Of a stretch of 51,712 nucleotides of DNA, positions 4,064-26,469 are shown piece after piece. The first letter of the stretch is position 1, and each line of letters starts with the position of its first letter. The position numbers and the translations under genes are program-made. A model generated the notes under the pieces. That model made no database searches, was not told the origin of the DNA, and saw nothing but the letters and a program-made list of their open reading frames with translations. This stretch comes from a virus (taxonomy: Duplodnaviria > Caudoviricetes). Location: the IMG/VR virus record IMGVR_UViG_3300012944_000010, positions 1 through 51,712 of that record; one strand, 5' to 3'.

Positions 4064-4091
4064 CCTATCACGACGCACACCGCAACACAAC

Positions 4092-4118
4092 GCCTCGCGC
4101 ACGCGCGGGGCATTCTTG
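4092..4118 (+). terminator. Probable intrinsic terminator
   Basis: GCCTCGCGC/GCGCGGGGC hairpin followed by ATTCTT. Confidence 0.5.
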
Positions 4119-4342
4119 TATCAACTCAATAGGTGACGCATGTATCATTGCTATTCTGAAAGTCTGCACTGTCTGCATTCAGTGCATTGTATCAGTTACA
4201 TGAAAGGGGAATGTGAACCAAACTATCCCATGCCTACTACACTCGACAATGTAGACCAGTATTATCGTCAATATTGGCGAGTGAAAGATATGAACGAATA
4301 TCGAGCACAGTACGAATAACTCTAAATCATTTAACTAAACTC

Positions 4343-4370
4343 ACCCGCCTTAGACGGCGGGTTTCTTTTT
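4343..4370 (+). terminator. Intrinsic terminator
   Basis: ACCCGCC-TTAGAC-GGCGGGT then TTCTTTTT. Confidence 0.8.
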
Positions 4371-4662
4371 GTCTTGCGTTGTATACAATCACATATAACG
4401 CGTGTAGGAAGGTCCGTGGTGCGTTATTTTATTGAGAGCTACTAGGGTAGCCAACATACAAATAAACGCATCAGCGGGCTTCTATCGCAGACGTCAGCCA
4501 TTCTATGCATTATGATAGGTAAATCACCATGGACTGGTTGGTCACACGATATAATGTAAACAATAGAGTTTTAACAATTTAAGAGTTTAAAACTTTTTCC
4601 TGTAAATCCAAATGTTGAGAAACATTATTCTCCCAAACTATTCCATATAGACATGCAGAAAC

Positions 4663-4691
4663 TTGACTAAGGTAGTGTGGTATGGGATAAT
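4663..4691 (+). promoter_or_regulatory. Early sigma70-type promoter
   Basis: TTGACT-17 nt-GATAAT with TG extension. Confidence 0.7.
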
Positions 4692-7443: not shown

Positions 7444-7527
7444 GCCCACATGGCGGAATGGTAGACGAGCCAGACTTAAAATCTGGTGCCTTCGGGCGTG
7501 CAGGTTCGAGTCCTGTTGTGGGCACCA
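7444..7527 (+). tRNA. tRNA-Leu(UAA)
   Basis: GCCCACA/TGTGGGC acceptor stem, CCAGA-CTTAAAA-TCTGG anticodon arm, long variable arm, GGTTCGAGTCC, encoded ACCA. Confidence 0.95.
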
Positions 7528-10376: not shown

Positions 10377-11935
10377 TAGAAGCACATCTTCCGTGTCCAT
10401 CATGTCCATCCTCCGACGCGTACTCCACGTGGGACGATGGGCACGGATTTTGTTTTAGTTGTAATACTTATTTTCCTGCTGATAATAAGATTTCATTAGA
10501 ATATACTTACGAGTATTTACCATGGCGAGGAGTACGAGATGAGAGCTTCAGATACTATAATGCTCGTACTCGTATCGGGCCTGATGGTTGTCCCGTTGAT
10601 ATTTTATACCCTTATTCTAATGGTGCAATTAAACACCGTAAAATCTTGGATAAAGAATTTTGGACGGAAGGTACTCCGTCTGGTCTGTTCGGTATGGACA
10701 AGTTTGATCCGGGGTCGTCGAAGACGATCACCATAACAGAAGGAGAGTTAGATGCTGTATCGCTTTGGCAGGTTAATCATACGCCTGTGGTTAGTGTCAG
10801 CTCAGCTGCTAGCAGTCTACGTGATTGCACAGTGGCTAGGGATTGGTTACTTAGCTTCGAGCGCATCATCCTTGCCTTCGACAGTGACCCAGCCGGTCGA
10901 GAAGCTGTCCGAAGGGTGGCACAGCTTTTTGAATTTGGTCGGGTGTACGACCTCAAACTAAACAAACACAAGGATGCCAATGCGTACGTCGAAGCTGGTG
11001 AGGAGAATGAACTTAAAACGGCATGGTATAACTGTAAGAAGTACGTGCCCGATAACTTCATTACTTCACTATCGGATTTCTCTGCGCTCCTTTCCGAGGA
11101 ACCCCACTTCGGCGTACCATATCCTTTCCCTACGTTAACGGAGATGACGTATGGAATTAGACCAGGAGAAATCGTCCTCATCACTGCTCAGGAAGGAGTA
11201 GGTAAAACTTCCTTACTCCACACCATCGAGCACAAACTTCTTAAGGAGACCACTGCCAATGTCGGATGTATCTACCCAGAGGAAACCCCTCGACGACATC
11301 TCGAAGCCATCCTTGGTATCGAGCTTGGAACGCCTATCCATCTTCCGGGACACAATATTACAGGGATTGAAAGATCTCTGGCATTGGAGAAACTTCTGGA
11401 GAAAGATGGCAGGTTACTCTTGTACCATTACAGCGGCGGAGGTGATCCGGATCTTTTTCTGGACGCAATCCGATTTATGGTGGCTGGCGCTCTGTGCAAG
11501 TTTGTCTGTTTTGACCTTGTCGGCATGGTCATCGGCGACAGTGGAACGGATGATCGGAAAGCCATAGATTACTTTATGACTCGGCTAGGGATGATGGCTG
11601 TTGAGCTAGATTTTGCAGCCATCATAACGAGCCATGTCAACGATCAAGGCCAAACACGAGGATCACGCTATGTCGGCAAGGCAGCCAGTACTCGCATTGA
11701 TCTTGAACGAAATCTGTCAGCTGGAGCTACTAGAACAATTCTCACCATCAATAAGAACCGATATGCTTCACGCACTGGATACGCTGGAACTATCGAGTTT
11801 GATCCGCTTACATACACATTTAAAGAGATACCGAAAACACAGCTCGACACAGAGTTTAACATTGAATTTTCTAAACTTGTTAAAGGACTTGTAGTTAATG
11901 GAGATAAAAGTAGTACATCGCAGATGGCGATATAG
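10364..11935 (+). CDS. T7 gp4-like primase-helicase (Zn ribbon + TOPRIM + SF4 helicase)
   Basis: In-frame extension upstream of the tracked ORF encodes HLPCPSCPSSDA...DGHGFCFSC; ITEGELDA, FDSDPAG and AQEGVGKT motifs. Confidence 0.92.
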   Translation: MSRLIEAHLPCPSCPSSDAYSTWDDGHGFCFSCNTYFPADNKISLEYTYEYLPWRGVRDESFRYYNARTRIGPDGCPVDILYPYSNGAIKHRKILDKEFWTEGTPSGLFGMDKFDPGSSKTITITEGELDAVSLWQVNHTPVVSVSSAASSLRDCTVARDWLLSFERIILAFDSDPAGREAVRRVAQLFEFGRVYDLKLNKHKDANAYVEAGEENELKTAWYNCKKYVPDNFITSLSDFSALLSEEPHFGVPYPFPTLTEMTYGIRPGEIVLITAQEGVGKTSLLHTIEHKLLKETTANVGCIYPEETPRRHLEAILGIELGTPIHLPGHNITGIERSLALEKLLEKDGRLLLYHYSGGGDPDLFLDAIRFMVAGALCKFVCFDLVGMVIGDSGTDDRKAIDYFMTRLGMMAVELDFAAIITSHVNDQGQTRGSRYVGKAASTRIDLERNLSAGATRTILTINKNRYASRTGYAGTIEFDPLTYTFKEIPKTQLDTEFNIEFSKLVKGLVVNGDKSSTSQMAI

Positions 11936-14003: not shown

Positions 14004-15008
14004 ATGTCAAGAAAGACTAGAAACAGAACAGGAATAGTGCGTATGGGTTCCTTCGGAGAGTTAGAACAGAAGATCAAAGAGATGGAAGAACCAGTGCATA
14101 CACAGTTTGTAGAGACGTTGGAGGAAGCTAAGAATTCTTCTATAAGTGATGTTGTTAAGTCTCTTACAGAAGCATTAGCTTCGTTTCTCAACAGAGACCA
14201 AGTAAGAGACTTAGTACAGAAAGAGATATACGATTTCAAATGTACTCACACTATAGAGCTTAAGAAGGACGGAGATGTAGTAACCCTTCCAGACGAGATA
14301 AGACACTACCTCTTCCCAGAGGTACTCCAGACAGTAGACTTATCAATACCAGCAGCATTAATCGGACCAGCTGGTAGTGGTAAGTCCACTCTATGTGAAC
14401 AGATAGCTTCTGCTCTAAAGCTTAAGTTCCACTTACAGAATGGAGTAACAGGAACCCATGAACTCACTGGCTATGTTGATGCCCATGGACGGTATGTGGG
14501 TACACCTTTCCGTTCTGCTTTCGAGCATGGCGGCCTCATTCTTATCGATGAGGTGGATACTTCTGAGGCTGGGGCACTCAAGTGGGTCAACACCGCATTG
14601 GCCAACGGTCATGCTGCTTTCCCTGATAAATGCGATCCTGTGGTACGCCATAATGATTTTCGCATCATCATTGCTGCAAATACCTGGGGCTCAGGAGCTG
14701 ATCGACTCTATGTCGGAGCTAATCAAATCGATGCTTCCACCTTAGACCGTTTCGTATTCTTCAACTTCCTCTATGATGAGAAGTTAGAAGAACTCGTAGC
14801 AGGAGATCCTTCGTGGGTTAAGAAGGTACAGAAGTACCGTAGAGCAGCAGATCAAGAGAAAGTACGTATTGTTATCTCCCCTCGTGCATCTATCCACGGT
14901 GCTAAACTAATCAAGATTGGTTGGAAACCATCTGTAGTGGAAGATAGGATCATATGGAAGGGAATAGACAAAGACCTGAAGGAACGCATTCTGAAAAGAG
15001 CCGCGTAA
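14004..15008 (+). CDS. CobS/MoxR-like AAA+ ATPase
   Basis: Walker A GPAGSGKS, Walker B ILIDEVD, IIAANT, DASTLDRF, ISPRAS. Confidence 0.9.
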   Translation: MSRKTRNRTGIVRMGSFGELEQKIKEMEEPVHTQFVETLEEAKNSSISDVVKSLTEALASFLNRDQVRDLVQKEIYDFKCTHTIELKKDGDVVTLPDEIRHYLFPEVLQTVDLSIPAALIGPAGSGKSTLCEQIASALKLKFHLQNGVTGTHELTGYVDAHGRYVGTPFRSAFEHGGLILIDEVDTSEAGALKWVNTALANGHAAFPDKCDPVVRHNDFRIIIAANTWGSGADRLYVGANQIDASTLDRFVFFNFLYDEKLEELVAGDPSWVKKVQKYRRAADQEKVRIVISPRASIHGAKLIKIGWKPSVVEDRIIWKGIDKDLKERILKRAA

Positions 15009-15059
15009 GGTTTAATTGTATAGGTCCAACCCATTGCGCTGATATAGGATCAGATCAGT

Positions 15060-16070
15060 GTGAGTATTGTGAGTGGGTACATGAGCGAAAGAATTCTGAA
15101 AGTAGAAGGGGATGCAAGAGAGATAGAATTAATCCTCCCACCTCCTAAAGAAGAACACACTAAAGTCTTCAGAGGATACTGGTCTTCCCCAGAAGCTCTA
15201 TCCAGAGAGATACGTAAGTGGGATAAGAAAGAAGCATGGTCTGACTCAGGATGGGAAACAGGCAATAGAGCCTGGTATGGTACAACCAGTATGGATGGAG
15301 CTATTAGTTTAGCTTTAGAAGGATGGCCGGAAGGCGCTGAGAAAGCATCTCGTCTGCAGAATAGGATACGTGCGAATAATCCTATTATGCTGAAGAGAAA
15401 GCTGTTCTCGGTAGCAGGAGCATCACCAGATGTACCTCGTGCAATCAGTGGCAATCCTCTTAATATGCGTATACCTGACGTGTCTAAAGCGTCCAGGAGA
15501 GTTGTCATCACATTACTATCCGATATTAGTGCTCACTGTGGGCATGATGGTGATGAGTTTATCAATAGAGCTGCTGTCGTGGCTGCTGTGGTGGATGAGA
15601 TAGAAGCATCTGGCTATGCGTGTGATGTAATAACCTACTGCAATTCAGAAGGTGGAGGTTGGGGAGATGGTAGTAGTAGTTTCAACTACTGTACTTCCAT
15701 CCAAGTGAAGAACTCAAACCAACCTGTAGATATTTCCAGACTAGCATTCGGACTAGGACACACATCCTTCTTTCGTCGTATGATCTTCGCAGAGAAAGGA
15801 TATCACCAATATTGCAAAGATCTTGGAACAGGATTAGGACACAGTACCTATTTTGATCAGAAAGGTCTTGCAGAGAGGAACATCTTTGTGATACCATCAA
15901 TCAACAATGCTAAAGGAGCATTCTCTACAGAAGAGAAAGCGGAGACAGAAGGTGTCAAGTACATCATCGAAGATCTCAAGAAACAAGGTTTCCCATTATT
16001 TGAGGTTGATGAGTTCATCCCTCAAACAGTACCTCTTACGAAAGACAGAACTATTAGAAAGGCAGCGTAG
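15060..16070 (+). CDS. vWA-like partner of the AAA ATPase
   Basis: GASPDVPRAISGNP and VVITLLSDISAHC (degenerate MIDAS); directly downstream of the ATPase. Confidence 0.7.
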   Translation: MSIVSGYMSERILKVEGDAREIELILPPPKEEHTKVFRGYWSSPEALSREIRKWDKKEAWSDSGWETGNRAWYGTTSMDGAISLALEGWPEGAEKASRLQNRIRANNPIMLKRKLFSVAGASPDVPRAISGNPLNMRIPDVSKASRRVVITLLSDISAHCGHDGDEFINRAAVVAAVVDEIEASGYACDVITYCNSEGGGWGDGSSSFNYCTSIQVKNSNQPVDISRLAFGLGHTSFFRRMIFAEKGYHQYCKDLGTGLGHSTYFDQKGLAERNIFVIPSINNAKGAFSTEEKAETEGVKYIIEDLKKQGFPLFEVDEFIPQTVPLTKDRTIRKAA

Positions 16071-16480: not shown

Positions 16481-18415
16481 TTGGAAGCTAATAGATTGAG
16501 AGTAGTATTCGACATAGAGGCTAATGGACTTATAAATCCTACGAAGATCTGGCTGATCGTATGTAGAGAGCTTGCTGAGCCCCTGGGTACAGTTGGTGCA
16601 CCCGGCTCTCTACATATCTTCAGAAAGGTATCGGATGATGAGTCAGAGAAGCAAAGGTTTCTGGAATTTAGTAGACAAGTTACTCAATGGATTGGTCATA
16701 ATTGTATTAGTTATGATTGTCCTGTTCTTAATGGATTATTGGGGCTGGTTATCCCCATTGAAAATGTGGTTGATACATTTATTATCTCCAAGTTAGTAGA
16801 TTATTCAAGAGATGGACATAGCATTGAAAGCTATGGGTTAGAGTTTAATATACCTAAGATTTCGTTTAATGATTTTAGTAAATATACATTAGAAATGGAG
16901 ACGTATTGTGTTAGAGATGTGGAAATCTGCCACAGAATATATAACAAGCATAGTGGGGTTATCAATGATCGAGCTTGGCGGACAGCTATTGACGTTGAGC
17001 AAAGCTTCCAGGTGGTTTGTGGGGAGTTGCATAATAATGGCTTTGCTTTCAATGTTAATGATGCAAATAAACTCCATAATAAAGTCACTAAAGAGTTAGC
17101 TGTCTTAGATAAAGCTATCTTAGAACAGTTTCCTCCCAGAGAAGTAATTCTCCGCTATTTCACGCCAAAGGCTACTAAGTTTGGTACCATAAATCGCACC
17201 TCCGTACCACGTAGCCTTTGGCATGAGATAGAGAATTACAAAGTAGGAGAGGAATATCCTGTCCATGGCATCCAGACGTTTAATCCTAGTAGTCATAAAC
17301 AAACTATTGATGTATTGTATGAAGCCGGGTGGAGTCCTATTGATAAAACTATTACTCACATTAAGGCTTTACGTACAAAGGATCAAGAAAAGCTTGACAA
17401 ACTAATTAAATACGGGTATAAAGTAAACGAGAATAACTTAAATACTTTACCTCCTAAAGCACCTGCCCCTGCTAGAACTCTAGCAAAGCGCATCCTGCTT
17501 GAGTCCCGACGAAGAACACTAACCGAATGGTTAGGTCTTGTCCAAGAAGACAATCGCATCCACGGGAAGTTCTACTCGATTGGAGCTTGGACTCACAGGA
17601 TGGCTCATCAAGAGCCTAATACCGCCAACATACTTAACGACACAGACACCCAAGGTAAGCCACGCCTATATGGCGGTGAGATGCGTAGCTTATGGTGTAC
17701 ACCGAAAGATAAGCTTCTAGTAGGTGTCGATGCAGAAGGCATCCAGTTACGCATCTTCGCTCATTACATTGATGATGAGGAGTTAACTAATGCCCTTGTC
17801 AACGGTAGAAAAGAAGATAAGACCGATCCGCATAGTGTCAACCAGAGGATCATTGGTGGTGTATGTCGATCTAGGGCTGCTGCAAAGCGGTTCTTATACG
17901 CGGTCTTTCTTGGAGCAGGATTGCGTAAGGTTGCTGAAATTCTGGACTGCTCAAAAGAAGAAGCAGAAGAGGCATTTGAACGTCTATTATCCCGTTATAC
18001 CGGCTTCGCCAAACTTAAACGTACAATTATACCGGCGGATGCGCGCCGTGGCTTTTTCATGGGGTTGGACGGTAGGCGGGTTCACATATACGGAGAGACA
18101 GTATCCGAACGACGACATCTGGCAATGTCGGGGTACCTCCAAAACGGTGAAGCGGTTGTAATGAAACACGCCACACTTCTCTGGCGTGATAGGTTGATTG
18201 AGAAGAAGATACCATTCAAGTTAGTGAACCTAGTTCACGATGAATGGCAAACGGAATGCCCAAATGATATGAGCATTGCGCTTGCCATTGCACAAGAACA
18301 GTGCACTGCACTGAGAGAGGTAGGTGAGAAACTGAAGTTACGATGCCCCCTAGCGGGGAGTTATGAGACAGACGGACATATTACTATAGGTGATAATTGG
18401 AAGGTGACACATTAG
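16481..18415 (+). CDS. polA: Family A DNA polymerase with 3'-5' exonuclease (T7 gp5-like)
   Basis: FDIEANG (ExoI), GHNCISYD, YCVRDV, THRMAHQEPN, VGVDAEGIQLR (motif A), RAAAKRFLYA (motif B), VHDEW (motif C). Confidence 0.96.
   Translation: MEANRLRVVFDIEANGLINPTKIWLIVCRELAEPLGTVGAPGSLHIFRKVSDDESEKQRFLEFSRQVTQWIGHNCISYDCPVLNGLLGLVIPIENVVDTFIISKLVDYSRDGHSIESYGLEFNIPKISFNDFSKYTLEMETYCVRDVEICHRIYNKHSGVINDRAWRTAIDVEQSFQVVCGELHNNGFAFNVNDANKLHNKVTKELAVLDKAILEQFPPREVILRYFTPKATKFGTINRTSVPRSLWHEIENYKVGEEYPVHGIQTFNPSSHKQTIDVLYEAGWSPIDKTITHIKALRTKDQEKLDKLIKYGYKVNENNLNTLPPKAPAPARTLAKRILLESRRRTLTEWLGLVQEDNRIHGKFYSIGAWTHRMAHQEPNTANILNDTDTQGKPRLYGGEMRSLWCTPKDKLLVGVDAEGIQLRIFAHYIDDEELTNALVNGRKEDKTDPHSVNQRIIGGVCRSRAAAKRFLYAVFLGAGLRKVAEILDCSKEEAEEAFERLLSRYTGFAKLKRTIIPADARRGFFMGLDGRRVHIYGETVSERRHLAMSGYLQNGEAVVMKHATLLWRDRLIEKKIPFKLVNLVHDEWQTECPNDMSIALAIAQEQCTALREVGEKLKLRCPLAGSYETDGHITIGDNWKVTH
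17394..17422 (+). promoter_or_regulatory. Possible internal sigma70 promoter within polA
   Basis: TTGACA-17 nt-TATAAA. Confidence 0.4.
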
Positions 18416-18482
18416 TTGGTTAGATAAATTATTTCCACCATTAATACCACGAAGAGAAGAGTTTATATGGGAGCCAAATGGC

Positions 18483-18665
18483 ATGAAGATTTATGCATTG
18501 AAGTTTAAAGATGAGATTATTAAATTAGGTACGAAAGAGTATGATGTTACATCGGATTACCGATGGGAACATAAAGGAGTTAGGGATCATCTAACAGTGG
18601 TATATGGTACTTTCACAGAGGAAGGTACAATTGAATTATTAAAAGTAGAAGAGGTGAAAGAGTAA
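18483..18665 (+). CDS. Hypothetical protein, 60 aa
   Basis: GGGAG SD. Confidence 0.5.
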   Translation: MKIYALKFKDEIIKLGTKEYDVTSDYRWEHKGVRDHLTVVYGTFTEEGTIELLKVEEVKE

Positions 18666-18842
18666 ATGTTTACGCAGCAAGTTAAAGTTAAGTATTGGGA
18701 GCCTAAGATGGCTACCATTGTATTAGAGACACCAAATAGGCTGACTAGTGTAGAGGCTGAGAATATGGCTCTTGAGGAATTCAAGGAGCAATATCCTGAG
18801 GCTCTAGATTATGTGGTTGAGGAAACAGTAGAACTCAACTGA
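18666..18842 (+). CDS. Acidic hypothetical protein, 58 aa (not in the track)
   Basis: GAGGTG SD; fills the gap before SSB exactly. Confidence 0.55.
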   Translation: MFTQQVKVKYWEPKMATIVLETPNRLTSVEAENMALEEFKEQYPEALDYVVEETVELN

Positions 18843-18843
18843 T

Positions 18844-19341
18844 ATGCCTAGAGAACAAGAAGTAGTTTACCTTAGTGGTAAGATTGCGTGGGGCAGAGGA
18901 CTCTTTGTCCCTTCGCAATTCAATAAATATTCATGTAGATTATATTTAGATCAAGAGTCTTTAAACATTGTACTAGATTTGAAGAAGAGAGGAATACAGA
19001 ATAACGTAACCAAAGATGAAAATGGATATTGGGTTAATCTGTCCCGTCCTTCTCAAATCAATGTACGTGGTGCTCTACGCACAATGGACCCACCTATTGT
19101 TATCGCTTCCGATGGACAACCTTGGGATAAGAACAAGGGAATTGGGGACGATAGTGATGTTACTTGTCAGGTAATCGTCCGTAATTGGAAAGCACCTATG
19201 GGCGGAAAGACAGGTGTTTCTATTAGGTTAGACTCTGTTAGAATTGATAACTTAGTTGAATTTACTAGTACAGATTGGCCTGAAGCAGTCGGTAAGAATG
19301 TTAAGGCTCTAGAAGAACATAAAGTAACTCCTTGGAATTAG
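18844..19341 (+). CDS. Single-stranded DNA-binding protein (T7 gp2.5-like)
   Basis: YLSGKIAW, KYSCRLY, PPIVIASDGQPW...IGDDSDV, RLDSVRIDNLVEF; position after polA. Confidence 0.75.
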   Translation: MPREQEVVYLSGKIAWGRGLFVPSQFNKYSCRLYLDQESLNIVLDLKKRGIQNNVTKDENGYWVNLSRPSQINVRGALRTMDPPIVIASDGQPWDKNKGIGDDSDVTCQVIVRNWKAPMGGKTGVSIRLDSVRIDNLVEFTSTDWPEAVGKNVKALEEHKVTPWN

Positions 19342-20720
19342 CCAGCCTAGTCCACTGATACAGACAGCCTACCCTACTCCCGTAGTGACTCCTGTATATC
19401 AGATGGTTGGCTCTTTTATTAGCAGCTCTGCTGCGCATGTTGCGGAGCAACATTTAATAGGGTGTTGCAGGTACGGTAACGTATTCTGTTCTGAGAGATG
19501 GTTTCGCCGTAAGGCTCTCACTCTAGGTTGCAGGCGAAGTAACAATCTAGCACCCTTTTATTAGCGTAGCTCAACAGCAAGAGCCCCACCTGTATGTGCT
19601 GGCGTGATCCAGTGGGAAACCGTGGGAGATGTAGGTTAAAGTCCTATCGCTATTTGTCCCTTTGTACAAATCTTTGTGCAGTAGTATAAAAGCGCAGGTA
19701 TAGACGGGTTAGAACTAGTAAACGGGTACTACAGGCCCGTGGGTTAGGTTCTCCAGGCCTAACTGTTCCGTCTCGATTACGCACGACGGCTGTCCGAACG
19801 TCGTTACCAGCCCTACGGGGCCAGAAATCCGGTGTTGCGCTCCGGCTGTGACTACACAGCTCCCAATAGGTGAGTTGTAAGGTGATGTGTACAGAGGGAC
19901 AAACTAAGGCTAGATCCTTACGCTGTAACCCCTCCATAAGGTGCAGCATGTGTCGGTAAGTAGGCCATTACTTGCAACCAGCCACATATGTGATCCTCTG
20001 CCCTCGGTGAACCGTCTTAACGGATCACTTAAGATGCTAAAAGACAATGTTAGCTAGTACCGGAAGGTATTCTAGCAGGTTGTGCAGGCAGATCATGGGA
20101 CGTTAAAAAACTCGATATGTTCCGTCTCTGTGGAAGCTAACGTATGTGGAAGTAGTTCCGTAAAGGTCCGCAATTCCTGGATTGTCTGTCCAGGATACGA
20201 CGATAGTCCTCGTGTATGATAAACTACAATCTCCACTCCCTCACTCATTCTTGCCGTGTAGGCATTGCTTTCAAACGCACAGAGCTGTAGAGTAGTAGGA
20301 GATTGAGGCGTCGTGTCAGATAGTGCCGCCGCTTCTCAAAGGTAGACACCAGAGAGATAGGGGAGCTACTGACACTGATTGACGATCAGTCCATAGGCGG
20401 GCAAGTAACGAGTCGTAGGACACAAAGCCCATGCTTTCAAGCTAAAGGGTGATTATAGGAATGAAAAGACTATGAGGCAGTCTAACGCCCTCTGAAGGCA
20501 GTCACTGTACCATCTGGGAAACTTTGTGGATAAACTCATAGTAGCGAATGCTCTGTTAGTTTGCTAACAGAGATACTATTCCCACTGCTTGCATAGTCGA
20601 GGTGGTGCTACAGGCCGTCAACAGATATGCAGCAGCAACCGCAGGAGGTGACAATGTTTCCTATGTGGTATGGGAATAAGCCTCCTTAAGTATTACCGGG
20701 GGGCTAGGTTGTCGTTGCTA
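19340..20720 (+). ncRNA. Large multi-domain structured non-coding RNA region (unclassified)
   Basis: No credible long ORF; about 15 abutting helical domains with G-U pairs and GNRA loops on the + strand. Confidence 0.7.
19560..19654 (+). ncRNA. tRNA-like element with a ~32-nt anticodon loop
   Basis: TAGCG/CGCTA acceptor, GCTC/GAGC D arm, CCCAC/GTGGG stem, GTAGG-TTAAAGT-CCTAT T arm. Confidence 0.6.
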
Positions 20721-20801
20721 TTATAATGAATTCATTTCTTAACAAATTTAGCACCTCTGGTGCGCGCGGCGTAGCCGCTTAACAACAATGGAGATTAAAT
20801 C

Positions 20802-21095
20802 ATGGGTAGCGGCATCTTAGACATGCTTCTACTACAGAGCTTACTCAAACCATCAGGAGGCACTGAGTCATTAGATCAGGCACTTAAATGGATTGAGGAA
20901 TTCAGGAAGACAGAGAAGGAGAAATCTGATAAAGCTAAAGCTAAAGGACCACAACCAGCACCTAAGATATTCTCATTCCCTGATGTTTGTTTCATATTAT
21001 TAGGACTGGGACTACCAGCTGGTTTATTATGGATGTGGGGTGTCTTAGAACTAATTGATATTGTGCAACACAGAGCAGCAGGTATATTTCACTAA
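20802..21095 (+). CDS. Membrane protein with C-terminal TM helix
   Basis: GGAG SD; FILLGLGLPAGLLWMWGVL. Confidence 0.7.
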   Translation: MGSGILDMLLLQSLLKPSGGTESLDQALKWIEEFRKTEKEKSDKAKAKGPQPAPKIFSFPDVCFILLGLGLPAGLLWMWGVLELIDIVQHRAAGIFH

Positions 21096-21098
21096 TTT

Positions 21099-21971
21099 AT
21101 GACTACTTCTATTCACACATTGATAACTGATGTTCGTGATCTACTCAAAACTAAAGGGTGGCTCACAGAGGTATTGGCGAAGGAACTGGGCGATGCAACA
21201 TCAAGATCTATTGGAGAACAGTTCTCCGAAAAACAAAAGGCTCCTTCGCTCCGCCTTTCAGGAATGGGACCGAGATGCCCTAAGGCATTATGGCATAGTA
21301 TACACACGCCGGGAGAGGCTGAACCTCTTCCACATTGGGCTGAAGCAAAATTCTCTTTGGGTCATTTCCAAGAGGCTTATGGCATAACACTTGCCAAGGC
21401 TGCTGGGCATAAAGTTGAAGGAGAGCAACATGAGTGCCACCTTGACGGCGTCAAAGGTCATGTGGATGCTATTGTTGACGGTTGTGTGGTTGATTTCAAG
21501 TCCTGTAGCGGCCGCCAATATCAGAAGTATAAATCCGGGGATATTGGGTTGGAGGGTAATGATTCGTTTGGGTTTCTTTGCCAGCTGGACGGGTACGTTA
21601 CTGCTTGTGGGCAGGATGATCTTGTTCATGTAAAAGACAAAGGCTATATTTTTGCAATGCATAAGGAACTAGGACATGTCTGCCTCTACGAGCACAGAAC
21701 TAGACCGGCTAGCATTCGAGAGCGCATTACTCAATACCGTAGCGTGGTTGAGCGAAAGCATCCGCCTGAGTGCACCTGTAAAACCGTACAACATGGAGCA
21801 AGTGGAAATATTGGTCTTGATACACGAGCTAGCTATGAAGCTTACAAATGGTGTTGTTTCCCCAAACTTCGTTGTTTCATCTACGCCAACGGACCCGCCT
21901 ATCTAACACGTGTAGTGAGGTTGCCAGATGTCCCAGAAGTCGGAAGAGATGGAAAGCTCATGCACACTTAA
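21099..21971 (+). CDS. PD-(D/E)xK exonuclease (Cas4/ExoVIII-like)
   Basis: LRLSGMG..CPKALW, GHFQE, KGHVDAIVDGCVVDFKS, QLDGY. Confidence 0.85.
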   Translation: MTTSIHTLITDVRDLLKTKGWLTEVLAKELGDATSRSIGEQFSEKQKAPSLRLSGMGPRCPKALWHSIHTPGEAEPLPHWAEAKFSLGHFQEAYGITLAKAAGHKVEGEQHECHLDGVKGHVDAIVDGCVVDFKSCSGRQYQKYKSGDIGLEGNDSFGFLCQLDGYVTACGQDDLVHVKDKGYIFAMHKELGHVCLYEHRTRPASIRERITQYRSVVERKHPPECTCKTVQHGASGNIGLDTRASYEAYKWCCFPKLRCFIYANGPAYLTRVVRLPDVPEVGRDGKLMHT

Positions 21972-22090: not shown

Positions 22091-22450
22091 ATCCCAAAGA
22101 TCAGAAATAAGTTCGAACAGAAGATCTCGAACCAGCTTAAGAAAGCTAAGGTGGAGTTTGGCTATGAGAAAGTTCGTATCCCTTACGTTATTCACGGTTG
22201 GTATATTCCTGATTTCATCGTGGATTTACATCTATTTCCTTCCGAAGATAAACGCTTGTATATCGAAACAAAAGGATACTTACGGCCAGAGCATAAACGA
22301 AAGATGGTTGCCGTTCGACGGTGTAATCCCACCCTAGACATAAGGCTGGTGTTCTATGCTCATAACAAGAAATACATAAAGTGGGCAGAGAAGAATGGCT
22401 TTCCGTGGGCTGTAGGCGAAATACCGAAGGAGTGGTTAAAATGTTACTAG
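22091..22450 (+). CDS. T7 endonuclease I-like Holliday junction resolvase
   Basis: In-frame N-terminus RNKFEQKISNQL upstream of the tracked GTG; YE, YIPDF, IETKGY, LDIRLVF, KWAEKNGFPW. Confidence 0.88.
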   Translation: MPKIRNKFEQKISNQLKKAKVEFGYEKVRIPYVIHGWYIPDFIVDLHLFPSEDKRLYIETKGYLRPEHKRKMVAVRRCNPTLDIRLVFYAHNKKYIKWAEKNGFPWAVGEIPKEWLKCY

Positions 22451-23111: not shown

Positions 23112-23557
23112 TGGCTAGTCTCTCAGGTGGTGGAAGTAGCAACAAATCTATCATAGGTAAATTCTCGGAAGAGTTGAAGAAGATCATCACCTCCGAGTCT
23201 GTCGAGAAAGCCTTGATCGACGAGTTGGCGGAGCGTGAGGCAGATAAGAGAGTTAAGGCTCTCGTCATTGTCTATGACAATCTTCTCAAACTCAACAGTG
23301 ATCTGAACAAGATCAACCGTCCAGACGACATAAAGTATGGAGCAGATCACAAACCTGTTCAAGAATACTTTACCAAATCTAGGATAGAAGAGATCGACAA
23401 AATCAAACAACGGATCGATAAACACGAGAAGGCCATCGCCAAGGGGCTTGACGGAGAGATGAAAGATGTCTACGATCTTGCCCAACAGTCTTCTGGAAAG
23501 AATAAGGACGGCAGTGGAAGCAAAGGTTCAGATCCTCCTGATCCCGAAGCTTCTTGA
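23111..23557 (+). CDS. Coiled-coil hypothetical protein
   Basis: GGAG SD, TAATG coupling. Confidence 0.75.
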   Translation: MASLSGGGSSNKSIIGKFSEELKKIITSESVEKALIDELAEREADKRVKALVIVYDNLLKLNSDLNKINRPDDIKYGADHKPVQEYFTKSRIEEIDKIKQRIDKHEKAIAKGLDGEMKDVYDLAQQSSGKNKDGSGSKGSDPPDPEAS

Positions 23558-23825
23558 TACTCATATAAAGTGGCACACCCGACCTCAAATGAGGCACGGG
23601 TGTGACTGCGATTGGTGTATAGAGAAAGCTGTAGGTACGGCTTACATAGGACGTACCTTCACACCATGGAGAAAATGGGATGAAGCTAAACAAGAATTAG
23701 CACCCTGGGTAGCAAAGGAAGCTCACCCTGATGACATAGGACATTATCTGATCCTATGGGAGAGAGAACGTAAGCGTAAGATTGTGAGAGAAAGATTAAA
23801 ATGGACGAAAGAGCATGCATTATGA
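23466..23825 (+). CDS. Hypothetical protein with CDCDWC motif (start uncertain)
   Basis: ORF bridges its neighbours; ATGA overlap downstream. Confidence 0.5.
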   Translation: MSTILPNSLLERIRTAVEAKVQILLIPKLLDTHIKWHTRPQMRHGCDCDWCIEKAVGTAYIGRTFTPWRKWDEAKQELAPWVAKEAHPDDIGHYLILWERERKRKIVRERLKWTKEHAL

Positions 23826-24364: not shown

Positions 24365-24475
24365 TTAGCACCCATGAAGACTGACCGGCATCCATAAGTC
24401 CGGCACACAAATAGTCTTCATAATAATTGTTTGTGTATGGGGATGACTGCACGCTAGCTAGATCGCTCACAAACG

Positions 24476-24515
24476 AAAGAACCCCCAGCGGCCTTTTGGC
24501 TACTGGGGGTTTTTT
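24476..24515. terminator. Bidirectional intrinsic terminator where the arms converge
   Basis: AAAGA-ACCCCCAGCGGCC-TTTT-GGCTACTGGGGGT-TTTTT. Confidence 0.9.
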
Positions 24516-24537
24516 AGTGTCTGGATTCTGCTATAGA

Positions 24538-26469
24538 CTATTCGTCTTTTGGAAAGCCTGGTAAATCTCTAAGGAGCTTCTGAAGTTCTGGGGATAATTT
24601 AGCAGCATTCTTTAGAACGATTCCATTAAGACGTTCCTCAAGCTCTGCTTTCTCAGCATGAGCTTGTCTGAATTCCAATTTAAACATATCTGGCTCAAAC
24701 CCTTCCTTCTTCCAATTCACGTTCTCAGCTTCTAAAAATCTATTTAAATGATCTAACCGAGCTTCAAGTTTATTATCTTTCATGTTATAAGTAATAGGAT
24801 ATTGGTTTCTATCTGCTTCTGCTACAAAACCTTTACCTTTACGTCCTTGCTTTGCTGCAGCTTTTTCATAAGCTTCTTGCCCAGGAGATTTCTTAGGAGG
24901 GTTGACCCAATGTTCAAATAAATTCATCAAAGGATGTTCTATAGTATCTTTATCTTTAACATTCTCATTAGCAGGTCTTTGTAACTGAGTTACATCACGA
25001 TTAGCAGTATTAAAATCTTCTGGACTTTTCTTCTCAAATTCTTCCATCATCTTTTTATAGACCTCAGGATACTGATTCTTTAAATTCTCAGGTTCTATAG
25101 GTCCACCTTCGAATTGATTCTTATACCAATCAGATAAACCTTCTTCAGGATCAGTGTGTTTCATTTCTTCTTTAAACCAATCCGGAACATCTTTGAGTCC
25201 TTGAGGTCCGAACTTATTCTTAGATTTCAATCCCAAGTTATCAGCTTGTCTCTTAACAGTAGTAGGGTCAACTCCTAATTCTCTACCAAGTTGTGGAAAA
25301 GATTTACCTGCGGCTAAACCTTCTTTTATGATTTTATCAATTCCAGGAATCTTTCTAAATATTCCTAATTCACCAGGACCAACTATTTGTGAAGGGTCTT
25401 TAAGAACGGATAAGATTTGATCTGCTAGAGTATCTCCCATACCTTGTATGTATCTACTAGCTTCACCTTCAGGTCTAGAAGGGATAAACTGTTTAGGCGA
25501 GAACTGTGCAGGTTCTTCGTTAGATGTATAATTAAGTAGACTATTTCTATCAGTATCAGGGTTGAAGAGAGGATTAATAAAATCTTGAGGAGCGTTATAC
25601 CTCTCTTCAGGGAAGGCTGTAGGACTTCTTAAACTGGGATGGTATAAACTAGGGGTACCTTCGAAACTCTCACCAGGGACCTTCTGTGGCAGTCCTAGAG
25701 GCATTCCTTGGAACCTGTCTCCAAAACTAGATTGAATATTAAATATCTTATGTTTACCAGGTTCAATACCTTTTTCGTGATATGCATCTTGATCTATGGA
25801 GTTGGAATCTGGTTGCCCAGCAGCATCCCAAGCATGAAGAGCACGCTCAGGAGAGTTATGAGAAACAATAAGTACTCTGTGTTCATCAGGATGTTCATTA
25901 GCTATCTGTTTAGTTGTATCTATAATTCTATTAGTAAATTCATTGAAAGATTCAGAGCTACCAGGTGGACGTTCGTCTTTAGCATCTTGACAATAATGAT
26001 CTACTTGATCGTGAGCTTCTTTACCTTTACTCTCAGTAAGATCCCCTAAATCCCAGGTTCTTAATCCTGGATGAAAGTCTGGAGTTATTCCGATCTCTTT
26101 ACCAATAATCCTAGCAGTCTCTTTGGCCCTAGGAAGATCACTAGAAACAATATGTGTAATATCAAGATCCTTGACAGACTTAGAAGCTTTCTTAGCTTCT
26201 TTACGCCCATCAGCATTAAGGCTAACATCGGACCATCCACGAATAGGCTGATCATGTGATTTTTCTCCTGATTCTTCATTTAGATCTGTGTCACCGTGAC
26301 GTACGAAGTAGAGTTCTTTATTAGGATTAGCTTCATATACATCGGTCTTGGGATTATAAGTACCTTCACCAGATTTAACTCTAGATGTTAAATCATCATT
26401 CATAGGATGATCAAGAAGATAATCTGTCTGATCTTCATACACTTGTCCATCATGAGTAGATACAACCAT
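24538..26469 (-). CDS. Multidomain protein: histidine phosphatase (PGM family) + HTH, at the end of the internal virion block
   Basis: YFVRHGDT, SSDLPRAKETA, LIVSHN; KSFPQLGRELGVDPTTVKRQA. Confidence 0.8.
   Translation of the reverse strand: MVVSTHDGQVYEDQTDYLLDHPMNDDLTSRVKSGEGTYNPKTDVYEANPNKELYFVRHGDTDLNEESGEKSHDQPIRGWSDVSLNADGRKEAKKASKSVKDLDITHIVSSDLPRAKETARIIGKEIGITPDFHPGLRTWDLGDLTESKGKEAHDQVDHYCQDAKDERPPGSSESFNEFTNRIIDTTKQIANEHPDEHRVLIVSHNSPERALHAWDAAGQPDSNSIDQDAYHEKGIEPGKHKIFNIQSSFGDRFQGMPLGLPQKVPGESFEGTPSLYHPSLRSPTAFPEERYNAPQDFINPLFNPDTDRNSLLNYTSNEEPAQFSPKQFIPSRPEGEASRYIQGMGDTLADQILSVLKDPSQIVGPGELGIFRKIPGIDKIIKEGLAAGKSFPQLGRELGVDPTTVKRQADNLGLKSKNKFGPQGLKDVPDWFKEEMKHTDPEEGLSDWYKNQFEGGPIEPENLKNQYPEVYKKMMEEFEKKSPEDFNTANRDVTQLQRPANENVKDKDTIEHPLMNLFEHWVNPPKKSPGQEAYEKAAAKQGRKGKGFVAEADRNQYPITYNMKDNKLEARLDHLNRFLEAENVNWKKEGFEPDMFKLEFRQAHAEKAELEERLNGIVLKNAAKLSPELQKLLRDLPGFPKDE

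Follow-up and report, generated by a model that had tools for sequence, protein, structure and literature searches.

The window analysed here, IMG/VR record IMGVR_UViG_3300012944_000010, is the complete genome record of a soil phage; it comprises 51,712 bp and has direct terminal repeats. Replication genes occupy the left arm (+ strand) and structural genes the right arm (- strand). Within the left arm, a gap (19342-20801) separates an open reading frame (ORF) of 165 aa from a gene for a 97-aa protein, which is followed by a gene for a Cas4-domain exonuclease. The gap contains a tRNA-like element and, towards its 3' end, a Shine-Dalgarno-led mini-ORF that ends in Pro-Pro-stop (Table 1). An earlier reading of the window from its letters alone (hereafter the sequence-only reading) had described this region as a chain of abutting structured RNA domains and as a candidate giant non-coding RNA or small-RNA array. 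From the comparison with related loci, an ORF-poor interval acting at the RNA level appears to be conserved by position in a clade of uncultured ~50-kb phages.

Coding content and conservation of the interval

No credible protein gene is present in the gap 19342-20801, where ORFs reach at most 59 aa (+ strand) and 99 aa (- strand). The six frames contain 20-36 stops each. Since every frame holds all three stop types, no recoding would open a frame through the gap. From 58 stop-to-stop peptides of the gap (at least 20 aa) only 8 tblastn matches were obtained, and all of these fall on nucleotide-conserved islands of two relatives, L005 and L032, where they are scattered over several frames and both strands. 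A hidden gene or an altered genetic code was therefore ruled out by the distribution of the stops and the pattern of the tblastn matches. In this respect ORF lengths, six-frame stops and tblastn agree with the sequence-only reading, which had seen no credible protein gene in the region.

Related loci were retrieved from IMG/VR with the DNA polymerase as query. Of the 79 loci found, mostly from genomes of ~50 kb, 58 hold homologues of both flanking genes; the remaining 21 lack one flanking gene and were excluded. Three near-duplicates (L004, L015 and L025) were excluded from all counts. In the 58 loci the homologues of the upstream gene (28-48% identity) are located directly 5' of the interval, and those of the exonuclease (36-57% identity) form its other boundary. 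The spacing between the flanking genes ranges from 314 to 4243 nt, with ORF-free stretches of 1-2.2 kb on the + strand in most of these loci. In the most distant relative, L065 (polymerase 42% identical), the interval L065:10625-10938 consists of 314 nt with one tRNA-like element and without a mini-ORF. The closest isolated phages are marine Zobellviridae, e.g. Roseobacter phage CRP-5 with a polymerase identity of 41%, and no such gap is found between polymerase and exonuclease of CRP-5. Since this isolated relative lacks the gap, the interval is presumably a gained and retained feature.

The body of the window's interval can be aligned with that of L005. In this alignment 455 of 800 columns are identical (57%), and the exonuclease gene of the same pair is 59% invariant; about 860 nt of the window's copy are conserved to the same degree as the neighbouring exonuclease gene. 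No match to the gap was found by blastn among 50,697 phage records, and with the upstream protein as query no relative was found in IMG/VR and the phage records. Exact-pattern scans of IMG/VR with two invariant blocks returned the L005 contig only. A metagenome scan with the back-translated mini-ORF yielded 19 stretches, of which only L097 and L101 are related; both show the same match as L005, with an identical nhmmer score, and the contig of L097 is as long as that of L005.

Known RNA families do not account for the interval either. For GOLLD, ROOL, HEARO, OLE, group I and II introns and tmRNA no Rfam match was obtained; the searches at gathering score covered the window and 10 relatives, and those with the looser limit of E <= 10 covered the gap and 5 relatives. 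With default settings ARAGORN detected no tmRNA in the window. Three other weak Rfam matches in 19200-20900 are far below their thresholds. The earlier statement that the region cannot be matched to GOLLD or ROOL thus holds for the window as well as for the relatives searched. The composite locus is matched neither in Rfam nor in the searches made here.

Mini-ORF, tRNA-like elements and family motifs

At the 3' end of the gap the sequence-only reading had placed its last RNA domain (20629-20718). This stretch is instead occupied by a ribosome-binding site and the mini-ORF, with the codons ATG UUU CCU AUG UGG UAU GGG AAU AAG CCU CCU UAA. Frames of this type, i.e. Shine-Dalgarno-led frames of 11-32 codons with a Pro-Pro-stop end near the 3' end of the interval, were found in 55 of 56 intervals. 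Inside the intervals 56 such frames lie on the + strand (one of them probably spurious) and 2 on the - strand, and 8 occur in 768 kb outside. The first Pro codon is CCU in 20, CCA in 17, CCC in 10 and CCG in 8 cases. The residue preceding Pro-Pro is Gln in 22 and Arg in 22 frames, with the Arg residues spread across six codons, and the stop is UAA in 54 of 55. Varied codons encode the same C-terminal residues, which shows selection on the peptide. Judged from this codon usage, the last three residues of the mini-ORF, [Q/R]-P-P, are under selection at the amino-acid level, and the mini-ORF appears to be translated. A published study (PMC3985003) describes slow termination at C-terminal Pro-Pro and its avoidance at bacterial C-termini. 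A word search of the open-access literature gave no report of a comparable leader frame in a phage.

The stop codon of the mini-ORF is followed by a G+C-rich hairpin, and in many loci CCUCCUU of the Pro codons is predicted to pair with the Shine-Dalgarno sequence of the next gene. For the window an alternative pairing of the Pro-Pro-stop codons is predicted, either with a run of G (20699-20704) or with the next Shine-Dalgarno region. According to the partition function, the Pro-Pro-stop 8-mer of the window is expected to form 4.03 pairs with positions -18 to -3 of the next start. In 27 of 55 intervals, the window among them, at least 3 pairs between Pro-Pro-stop and ribosome-binding site are expected, a count that includes the intrinsic complementarity of CCUCC and GGAGG. 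From the mini-ORF stop to the next start the distance is 112 nt in the window, with a median of 69 nt over 55 intervals. The proteins encoded by the next gene mostly have 85-130 aa, and 42 of 55 passed a hydrophobic-window test. They often show a Pro/Tyr/Gly-rich N-terminus, a lysine/glutamate-rich middle part and a C-terminal membrane helix. Since many of them carry proline runs, leader and controlled gene would both depend on proline translation. The mini-ORF probably gates the next gene, a small membrane protein.

In the tRNA-like element of the window, a 29-32 nt insert with its own hairpin takes the place of the 7-nt loop on the anticodon-like stem. ARAGORN called the element tRNA-??? with a 4-letter anticodon. 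The Rfam tRNA model (RF00005) matched it with 34.1 bits at a gathering score of 29 in a sensitive search of 1.7 kb (19200-20900); the Rfam search of the whole stretch with fast filters did not list it. A readable anticodon in a 7-nt loop is missing, and in the window as well as in L054 and L062 the T loop reads UUAAAGU in place of the consensus UUCRANN. A decoding role is not likely. Related elements were found inside the intervals of L054 and L062 and elsewhere in the genome of L032. In the alignment of these four sequences 94.2% of the cells pair, as compared with 30-46% in slid controls. Changes on both sides were found for 13 of 29 pairs (shuffles 6.4 ± 1.6; 0 of 500 shuffles as high), a test which somewhat favours the structure, because it was drawn from the same four sequences. 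ARAGORN, the Rfam tRNA model and the covariation among four sequences agree in supporting the tRNA-like character that had been proposed for this element.

The relative of this element in L032 (L032:16705-16827) is located ~2.7 kb 3' of the exonuclease gene, outside the interval, and a longer hairpin replaces its T arm. Since this copy is both displaced and altered in its T arm, the module seems to move and to be remodelled. In the window, the 11-nt CTTTTATTAGC (19413-19423) recurs exactly at 19555-19565, so that one copy follows each of the first two hairpins. The second copy extends into the 5' acceptor strand of the tRNA-like element. AGCTC comes after the first copy and makes this copy look like what is left of a second tRNA-like 5' half.

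T arms are also a recurrent feature of the family. T-arm hairpins, defined by a 5-bp stem and the loop UUCRANN, were counted in 55 non-redundant intervals (143 kb) and in 718 kb outside. The intervals contain 74 on the + strand and 0 on the - strand, as compared with 13 and 6 outside. At least one T arm is present in 44 of 55 intervals; their number per interval varies from one to four, with spacings of at times 70-110 nt. These T arms are not ordinary tRNA genes. ARAGORN made two calls in or near the intervals over 60 loci, and the Rfam tRNA model found none in the intervals on which it was run. With relaxed thresholds and introns allowed, ARAGORN produced many calls on both strands, which were treated as noise. 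A search for acceptor stems beside each T arm performed no better than chance matches.

Many of the T arms are followed by a hairpin and then by a D-arm-like UGGYGNAA...ACRC, and constrained folds show clean four-way junctions in L009, L010, L019, L059, L069 and others. A covariance model of this permuted module (R1; T arm, acceptor-like hairpin, D arm) was built from 15 modules. In 25 of 55 relatives it has a match within the interval (E <= 0.01). At the looser limit of E <= 1 there are 61 matches, without exception on the + strand, and a few of these fall on junctions of true tRNA genes. The Rfam model of the bacterial Y RNA-like RNA YrlA (RF02553) reached at best 29.4 bits among 5 relatives, far from its gathering score of 69 and over model positions 23-89 only; positions 1-22 and 90-114 were not matched in L045. 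In the window's gap YrlA gave no match at E <= 10. With PF05731, a search through all six frames of the complete 51.7-kb genome found no Ro60/TROVE gene, while control genomes were positive, and a Pfam search of 22 phage ORFs found no Ro60/TROVE.

Four further motifs (M1-M4) each have 18-21 copies on the + strand inside the intervals and 0-1 on the - strand. M2 is a hairpin with the loop GUCUCAUUAGC; 17 of 19 copies have at least 3 flanking pairs, formed by 18 different stems (slid controls 6%). M4 is a hairpin with the loop CAGAUUA, and all 18 copies have at least 2 extra pairs, from 12 different stems. In M3 one pair alternates between A-U (10 sequences) and G-C (7 sequences), and the M3 hairpin alone was aligned when the M1-M3 region of 19 loci was subjected to MAFFT and RNAalifold. 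Many relatives show a rough motif order of M1, M3, T-arm module(s), M2/M4 and mini-ORF over ~1-1.5 kb. When 185,579 genomes were scanned for the M3 pattern, it was found in 24 stretches from unrelated taxa; since no R1 module is near any of them, these matches were taken as chance or unrelated. The window shows no enrichment of the motifs TTTTATTAGC and GYCWSATYAGC.

With their co-varying stems and strict strand bias, the tRNA mimics in the intervals are under selection. The claim of an action at the RNA level on the + strand, already made for the window, is supported by these strand-biased motifs and with the conservation across the clade.

Folding and genomic setting of the window

The minimum free energy (MFE) of the gap is lower on the + strand (-482.3 kcal/mol) than on the - strand (-430.9 kcal/mol), consistent with the strand preference of the sequence-only reading. 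Its closing helices exist in the sequence, with a best contiguous pairing of 5-16 bp at each named place. The 14 proposed domains have folding z-scores from +0.05 to -4.55 with a mean of about -1.8, and 6 of the 14 are at -2 or lower, values that are biased because the domain borders were picked to close helices.

A consensus fold of the window's body with L005 (RNAalifold) reached -93.9 kcal/mol on the + strand and -83.7 kcal/mol on the - strand, as compared with -67.3 ± 6.1 for 40 column shuffles. This corresponds to z = -4.4 (+) and -2.7 (-), while the exonuclease gene of the pair gave -0.8. Compensatory pairs amount to 41 (shuffles 30.7 ± 5.4), with 17 as compared with 20.1 in the exonuclease control. 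For a cluster of four relatives (C1; 700 nt 5' of the mini-ORFs) z is -6.8 with 41 pairs as compared with 18.9 ± 5.1, and its exonuclease control shows z = +0.3 and 6 pairs as compared with 9.3.

Comparison with homologues and covariation, proposed earlier as a check, gave a divided result: the tRNA-like element and small stems covary, but most of the named helices of the body are not kept in L005. The picture of abutting closed domains in a chain therefore does not hold. Among the helices that are retained, one of 10 bp (19982/20149) had not been listed before, and no null placement in L005 reached its observed length (reported P 0.00). The long helix between 19653-19672 and 19884-19903 (20 nt, 90% complementarity, 16 contiguous pairs) has its 5' arm outside the part aligned with L005, and the best counterpart in L005, 6 bp, is no better than the null. 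For the domain at 19459-19556 no homologue was found, and the hairpin at 19340-19412 is not called a terminator by the consensus scan.

Table 1. Features of the replication arm around the gap, in the order of their position in the window.
Feature	Position	Strand	Remarks
Primase-helicase	10646-11935	+	
Family A DNA polymerase	16481-18415	+	
Upstream flanking gene, 165 aa	18844..19341	+	ORF; just 5' of the interval
Long hairpin	19340..19412	+	Right after the upstream-gene stop, then CUUUUAUUAGC; MFE -22.4, z -2.52
Three-branch domain	19459..19556	+	AGGGUG/CACCCU closure, then second CUUUUAUUAGC; MFE -32.7, z -1.96
tRNA-like element	19560..19655	+	Acceptor stem, D arm, anticodon-like stem with insert, T arm
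Domain with 16-20 bp closing helix	19653..19903	+	Seen in the window only
Part conserved with L005	19883..20745	+	nhmmer E 2.7e-38; invariant blocks 20148-20168, 20257-20274
10-bp helix	19982-19991 with 20140-20149	+	Kept in L005, one compensatory change
Helix CAAUCUCC/GGAGAUUG (20227-20234/20298-20305)	20227..20305	+	L005 GCAUCAU/AUGAUGU, P 0.06; domain z -2.33
Helix GUGUCAG/CUGACAC (20313-20319/20369-20375)	20313..20375	+	L005 10-bp helix with other letters, P 0.04; domain z -4.55, best of 14
Shine-Dalgarno AGGAGG (20643-20648), 5-nt spacer, mini-ORF (20654-20689)	20643..20689	+	MFPMWYGNKPP-stop, 11 codons
Pro-Pro-stop codons, spacer, ribosome-binding site of next gene	20681..20801	+	
Downstream gene, 97 aa	20802..21095	+	K/E-rich middle, C-terminal hydrophobic helix
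Downstream flanking gene, Cas4-domain exonuclease	21099..21971	+	phrog_1990, E 6.7e-15
Endonuclease I homologue	22151-22450	+	

The upstream ORF had been named SSB. Since it has no match in PHROG, Pfam or PDB sequences, this name is unverified. The true tRNAs of the genome are located at 7444 and 7652 (Rfam, gathering scores). Some observations concern other parts of the genome. In the replication arm (14004-16070) an AAA_5 (MoxR/CobS-like) ATPase, tagged 'porphyrin biosynthesis' in PHROGs, adjoins a DUF7192 protein. Near the left genome end, two further stretches on the + strand (1488-2800 and 4064-4676) are without an ORF of at least 70 aa; they contain neither a T-arm hairpin nor an Rfam match and may harbour small early genes or other non-coding elements. 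Strong folding on both strands (z -3.4 to -6.8) was found in 150-nt windows at 17101-17250, 18151-18375, 23476-23700 and 24376-24600, two of which are within the DNA polymerase gene and one at the junction of the convergent arms, a position that would suit a two-way terminator. In the relatives L069, L072 and L073 the polymerase match extends from 8001 to about 10300 (~2.3 kb as compared with 1.9 kb) and is in pieces, as would be expected if an intron, intein or homing element had been inserted into the gene.

Interpretation and comparison with known systems

Our preferred interpretation, to which we assign a probability of about one half, is that the gap is a modular non-coding RNA locus on the + strand, a leader with tRNA-like processing and a Pro-Pro-stop gate. 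A promoter and terminator consensus scan of 18300-21300 gave no signal above shuffles. A hairpin followed by a run of T is present in 16 of 56 intervals and absent from the window. Since canonical terminators are few in the intervals, the gap is presumably transcribed together with its flanking genes and would be read within the transcript of the replication genes. The tRNA-like element would be recognised by RNase P and RNase Z of the host, whose cleavage at this site would release a structured RNA of ~1 kb, the long leader, from the polycistronic RNA. Ribosomes translating the mini-ORF at the 3' end of this leader would be released slowly at Pro-Pro-UAA. The paused ribosome would melt the pairing of CCUCCU with the G-rich or Shine-Dalgarno sequence downstream and thereby open the start of the small membrane-protein gene, following the logic of secM-secA or ermCL-ermC.

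Several results weigh against this interpretation. We infer strand, ends and processing of the gap RNA from sequence only. Cleavage by RNase P is a guess, since the 7-nt anticodon loop is absent from the element and its T loop is unusual. In single-sequence folding the gap cannot be separated from its coding surroundings: the z-scores of 150-nt sliding windows average -1.03 in the gap (17 windows) and -0.82 in the coding flanks (112 windows; one-sided Mann-Whitney p 0.16). Ten of the 12 helices from that reading which were compared with L005 are not kept there, and the 2 that are kept have changed letters. L005 is also the only one of 58 intervals that aligns with the window's body. The energy z of a second cluster of relatives (C2, -9.2) was dropped as evidence, because the coding control was equally negative (-6.2 and -8.8); its pair count of 19 as compared with 9.6 (control 4 as compared with 6.6) is the sole result from C2 that carries weight. 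The window and L005 lack M1-M4 as well as the permuted module (best R1 score in the window's gap 15.7 bits, E 0.49). As these are missing, the link of the window's 1-kb body to the family RNA consists of position, tRNA-like element and mini-ORF and not of an alignment. The window is an atypical member, which shares only these three with most relatives. Finally, the letters by themselves would lead one to expect the CCUCC/Shine-Dalgarno pairing, which is predicted for only about half of the intervals.

A single autonomous RNA of at least 1 kb, structured like GOLLD or ROOL and with the mini-ORF as a separate neighbour, would account for the roughly collinear order of motifs over ~1-1.5 kb in many relatives, for conserved loops on co-varying stems and for the consensus-fold signals. 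The 16-bp long-range helix of the window and the missing match to an Rfam family would fit as well. We nevertheless regard such an RNA as doubtful, because nothing points to one transcript with defined ends, the spacing of the flanking genes varies from 314 to 4243 nt down to L065 with its tRNA-like element only, and the window is without the family motifs and folds unexceptionally. A giant single RNA is unproven, and reading the 1-kb body as one folded RNA with its own function goes beyond the evidence. It seems unlikely to us that the locus yields many small RNAs by separate processing, most of them tRNA mimics that serve as decoys or sponges for tRNA-binding host proteins (such as anticodon nucleases, modification enzymes or Ro60-type proteins). 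The T arms, up to four per interval and at times closely spaced, the YrlA-like module in 25 of 55 relatives with its sub-threshold YrlA score, and the tRNA-like element of L032 at another site, like a mobile module, speak in its favour, as do the YrlA RNAs, which are described as substrates of tRNA enzymes (PMC4201824). However, 1.4 kb of the window contain a single tRNA-like element, the complete phage genome is without a Ro60/TROVE gene, and much of the conserved sequence lies outside the tRNA-like parts.

That the interval is a decaying tRNA cluster or a neutral spacer, with a function limited to the mini-ORF, would agree with the fast turnover, by which just one interval of 58 still aligns with the window's body, with real tRNA genes elsewhere in these genomes and with the unremarkable single-sequence folding. 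We consider this improbable: an ORF-poor interval of 1-2 kb is retained in nearly all of 58 compact genomes, and the window's body is conserved like the exonuclease gene (57% and 59%) while CRP-5 has no gap. Moreover, T loops of perfect consensus on intact 5-bp stems, 74 to 0 in favour of the + strand, and the permuted order of T arm, hairpin and D arm are not expected from decayed tRNAs. A role of the DNA itself as replication origin, packaging site or recombination site is highly improbable, even though the gap lies within the replication module and contains inverted repeats. Its G+C content is 0.47-0.52 as compared with about 0.40 in the flanks, the GC skew makes no turn, iterons and tandem repeats are absent, and the motifs keep strictly to one strand; the direct terminal repeats that form the genome ends are found at other positions. 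A replication origin and iterons were rejected on the scans of G+C, skew and repeats.

Compact phage genomes seldom tolerate long non-coding stretches. Large structured phage RNAs are few and their roles are open, and at least 55 contigs of one clade appear to keep a non-coding RNA of 1-2 kb in the replication module. As a modular leader locus, it would join tRNA mimicry inside a long RNA with [Q/R]-P-P-UAA, an arrest-type leader of great simplicity that would lend itself naturally to sensing termination or proline translation. The permuted YrlA-type fold occurs in relatives, though the window's complete genome is without a Ro60 gene. Either part could show how phages read or disturb the translation apparatus of the host. 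Speculatively, and with considerable doubt, the uncultured podophages of this soil and freshwater clade might possess a new modular RNA class of at least 1 kb, built on ordinary and permuted YrlA-like tRNA mimics and processed by the tRNA enzymes of the host. Such RNAs would act on host translation or tRNA surveillance, e.g. by drawing off tRNA-targeting defences as a decoy or by offering a docking site to ribosomes or tRNA-binding factors. They would be linked in cis to an arrest peptide with a Pro-Pro-stop end, which would report on the state of termination or of proline translation and thereby set the timing of a small membrane protein. If the body is only a leader or spacer, the mini-ORF remains a new conserved regulatory frame.

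A first comparison is with tRNA-like processing signals, of which mascRNA is an example. As in mascRNA and in mitochondrial punctuation, the cloverleaf of the window is located between an mRNA and a long RNA, which cuts by RNase P and RNase Z would separate. With tRNA itself (RF00005) the element shares the cloverleaf with acceptor, D and T arms. It differs in the insert that replaces the anticodon loop and in the T loop UUAAAGU, and in L032 the T arm has become a longer hairpin. GOLLD and ROOL are, partly as described in bioRxiv 10.1101/2024.12.08.627333, large RNAs of phage and prophage DNA that are associated with tRNAs and whose role is unknown. The interval resembles them as a large non-coding stretch in phage DNA with tRNA association, but it is more variable in length, carries the tRNA mimics inside and a mini-ORF at its end, and does not match their Rfam models.

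YrlA, a bacterial Y RNA-like RNA, contains a permuted tRNA-like module according to Chen et al. 2014 (PMC4201824), the work that also describes YrlA RNAs as tRNA-enzyme substrates. Relatives such as L009, L019, L059 and L069 share its order of variable arm, T arm, acceptor-like hairpin and D arm, and the anticodon-like stem closes the module. In contrast to YrlA, the Ro60-binding helix, which in YrlA carries the motif GNCGAAN0-1G, is outside the matched part of the Rfam model, and the phage has no Ro60/TROVE gene; the element of the window has the ordinary tRNA order. Regulatory leader and arrest peptides are represented by SecM-secA, ErmCL-ermC, TnaC and MgtP. Like these, the phage frame is Shine-Dalgarno-led, is located just 5' of a putatively regulated gene and has a conserved stall-prone C-terminus. 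A pairing of its putative stall site with the downstream start region is predicted for about half of the intervals. Unlike these, the phage frame conserves the last three residues only, its predicted stall occurs at termination on UAA, and it sits 3' of at least 1 kb of structured RNA.

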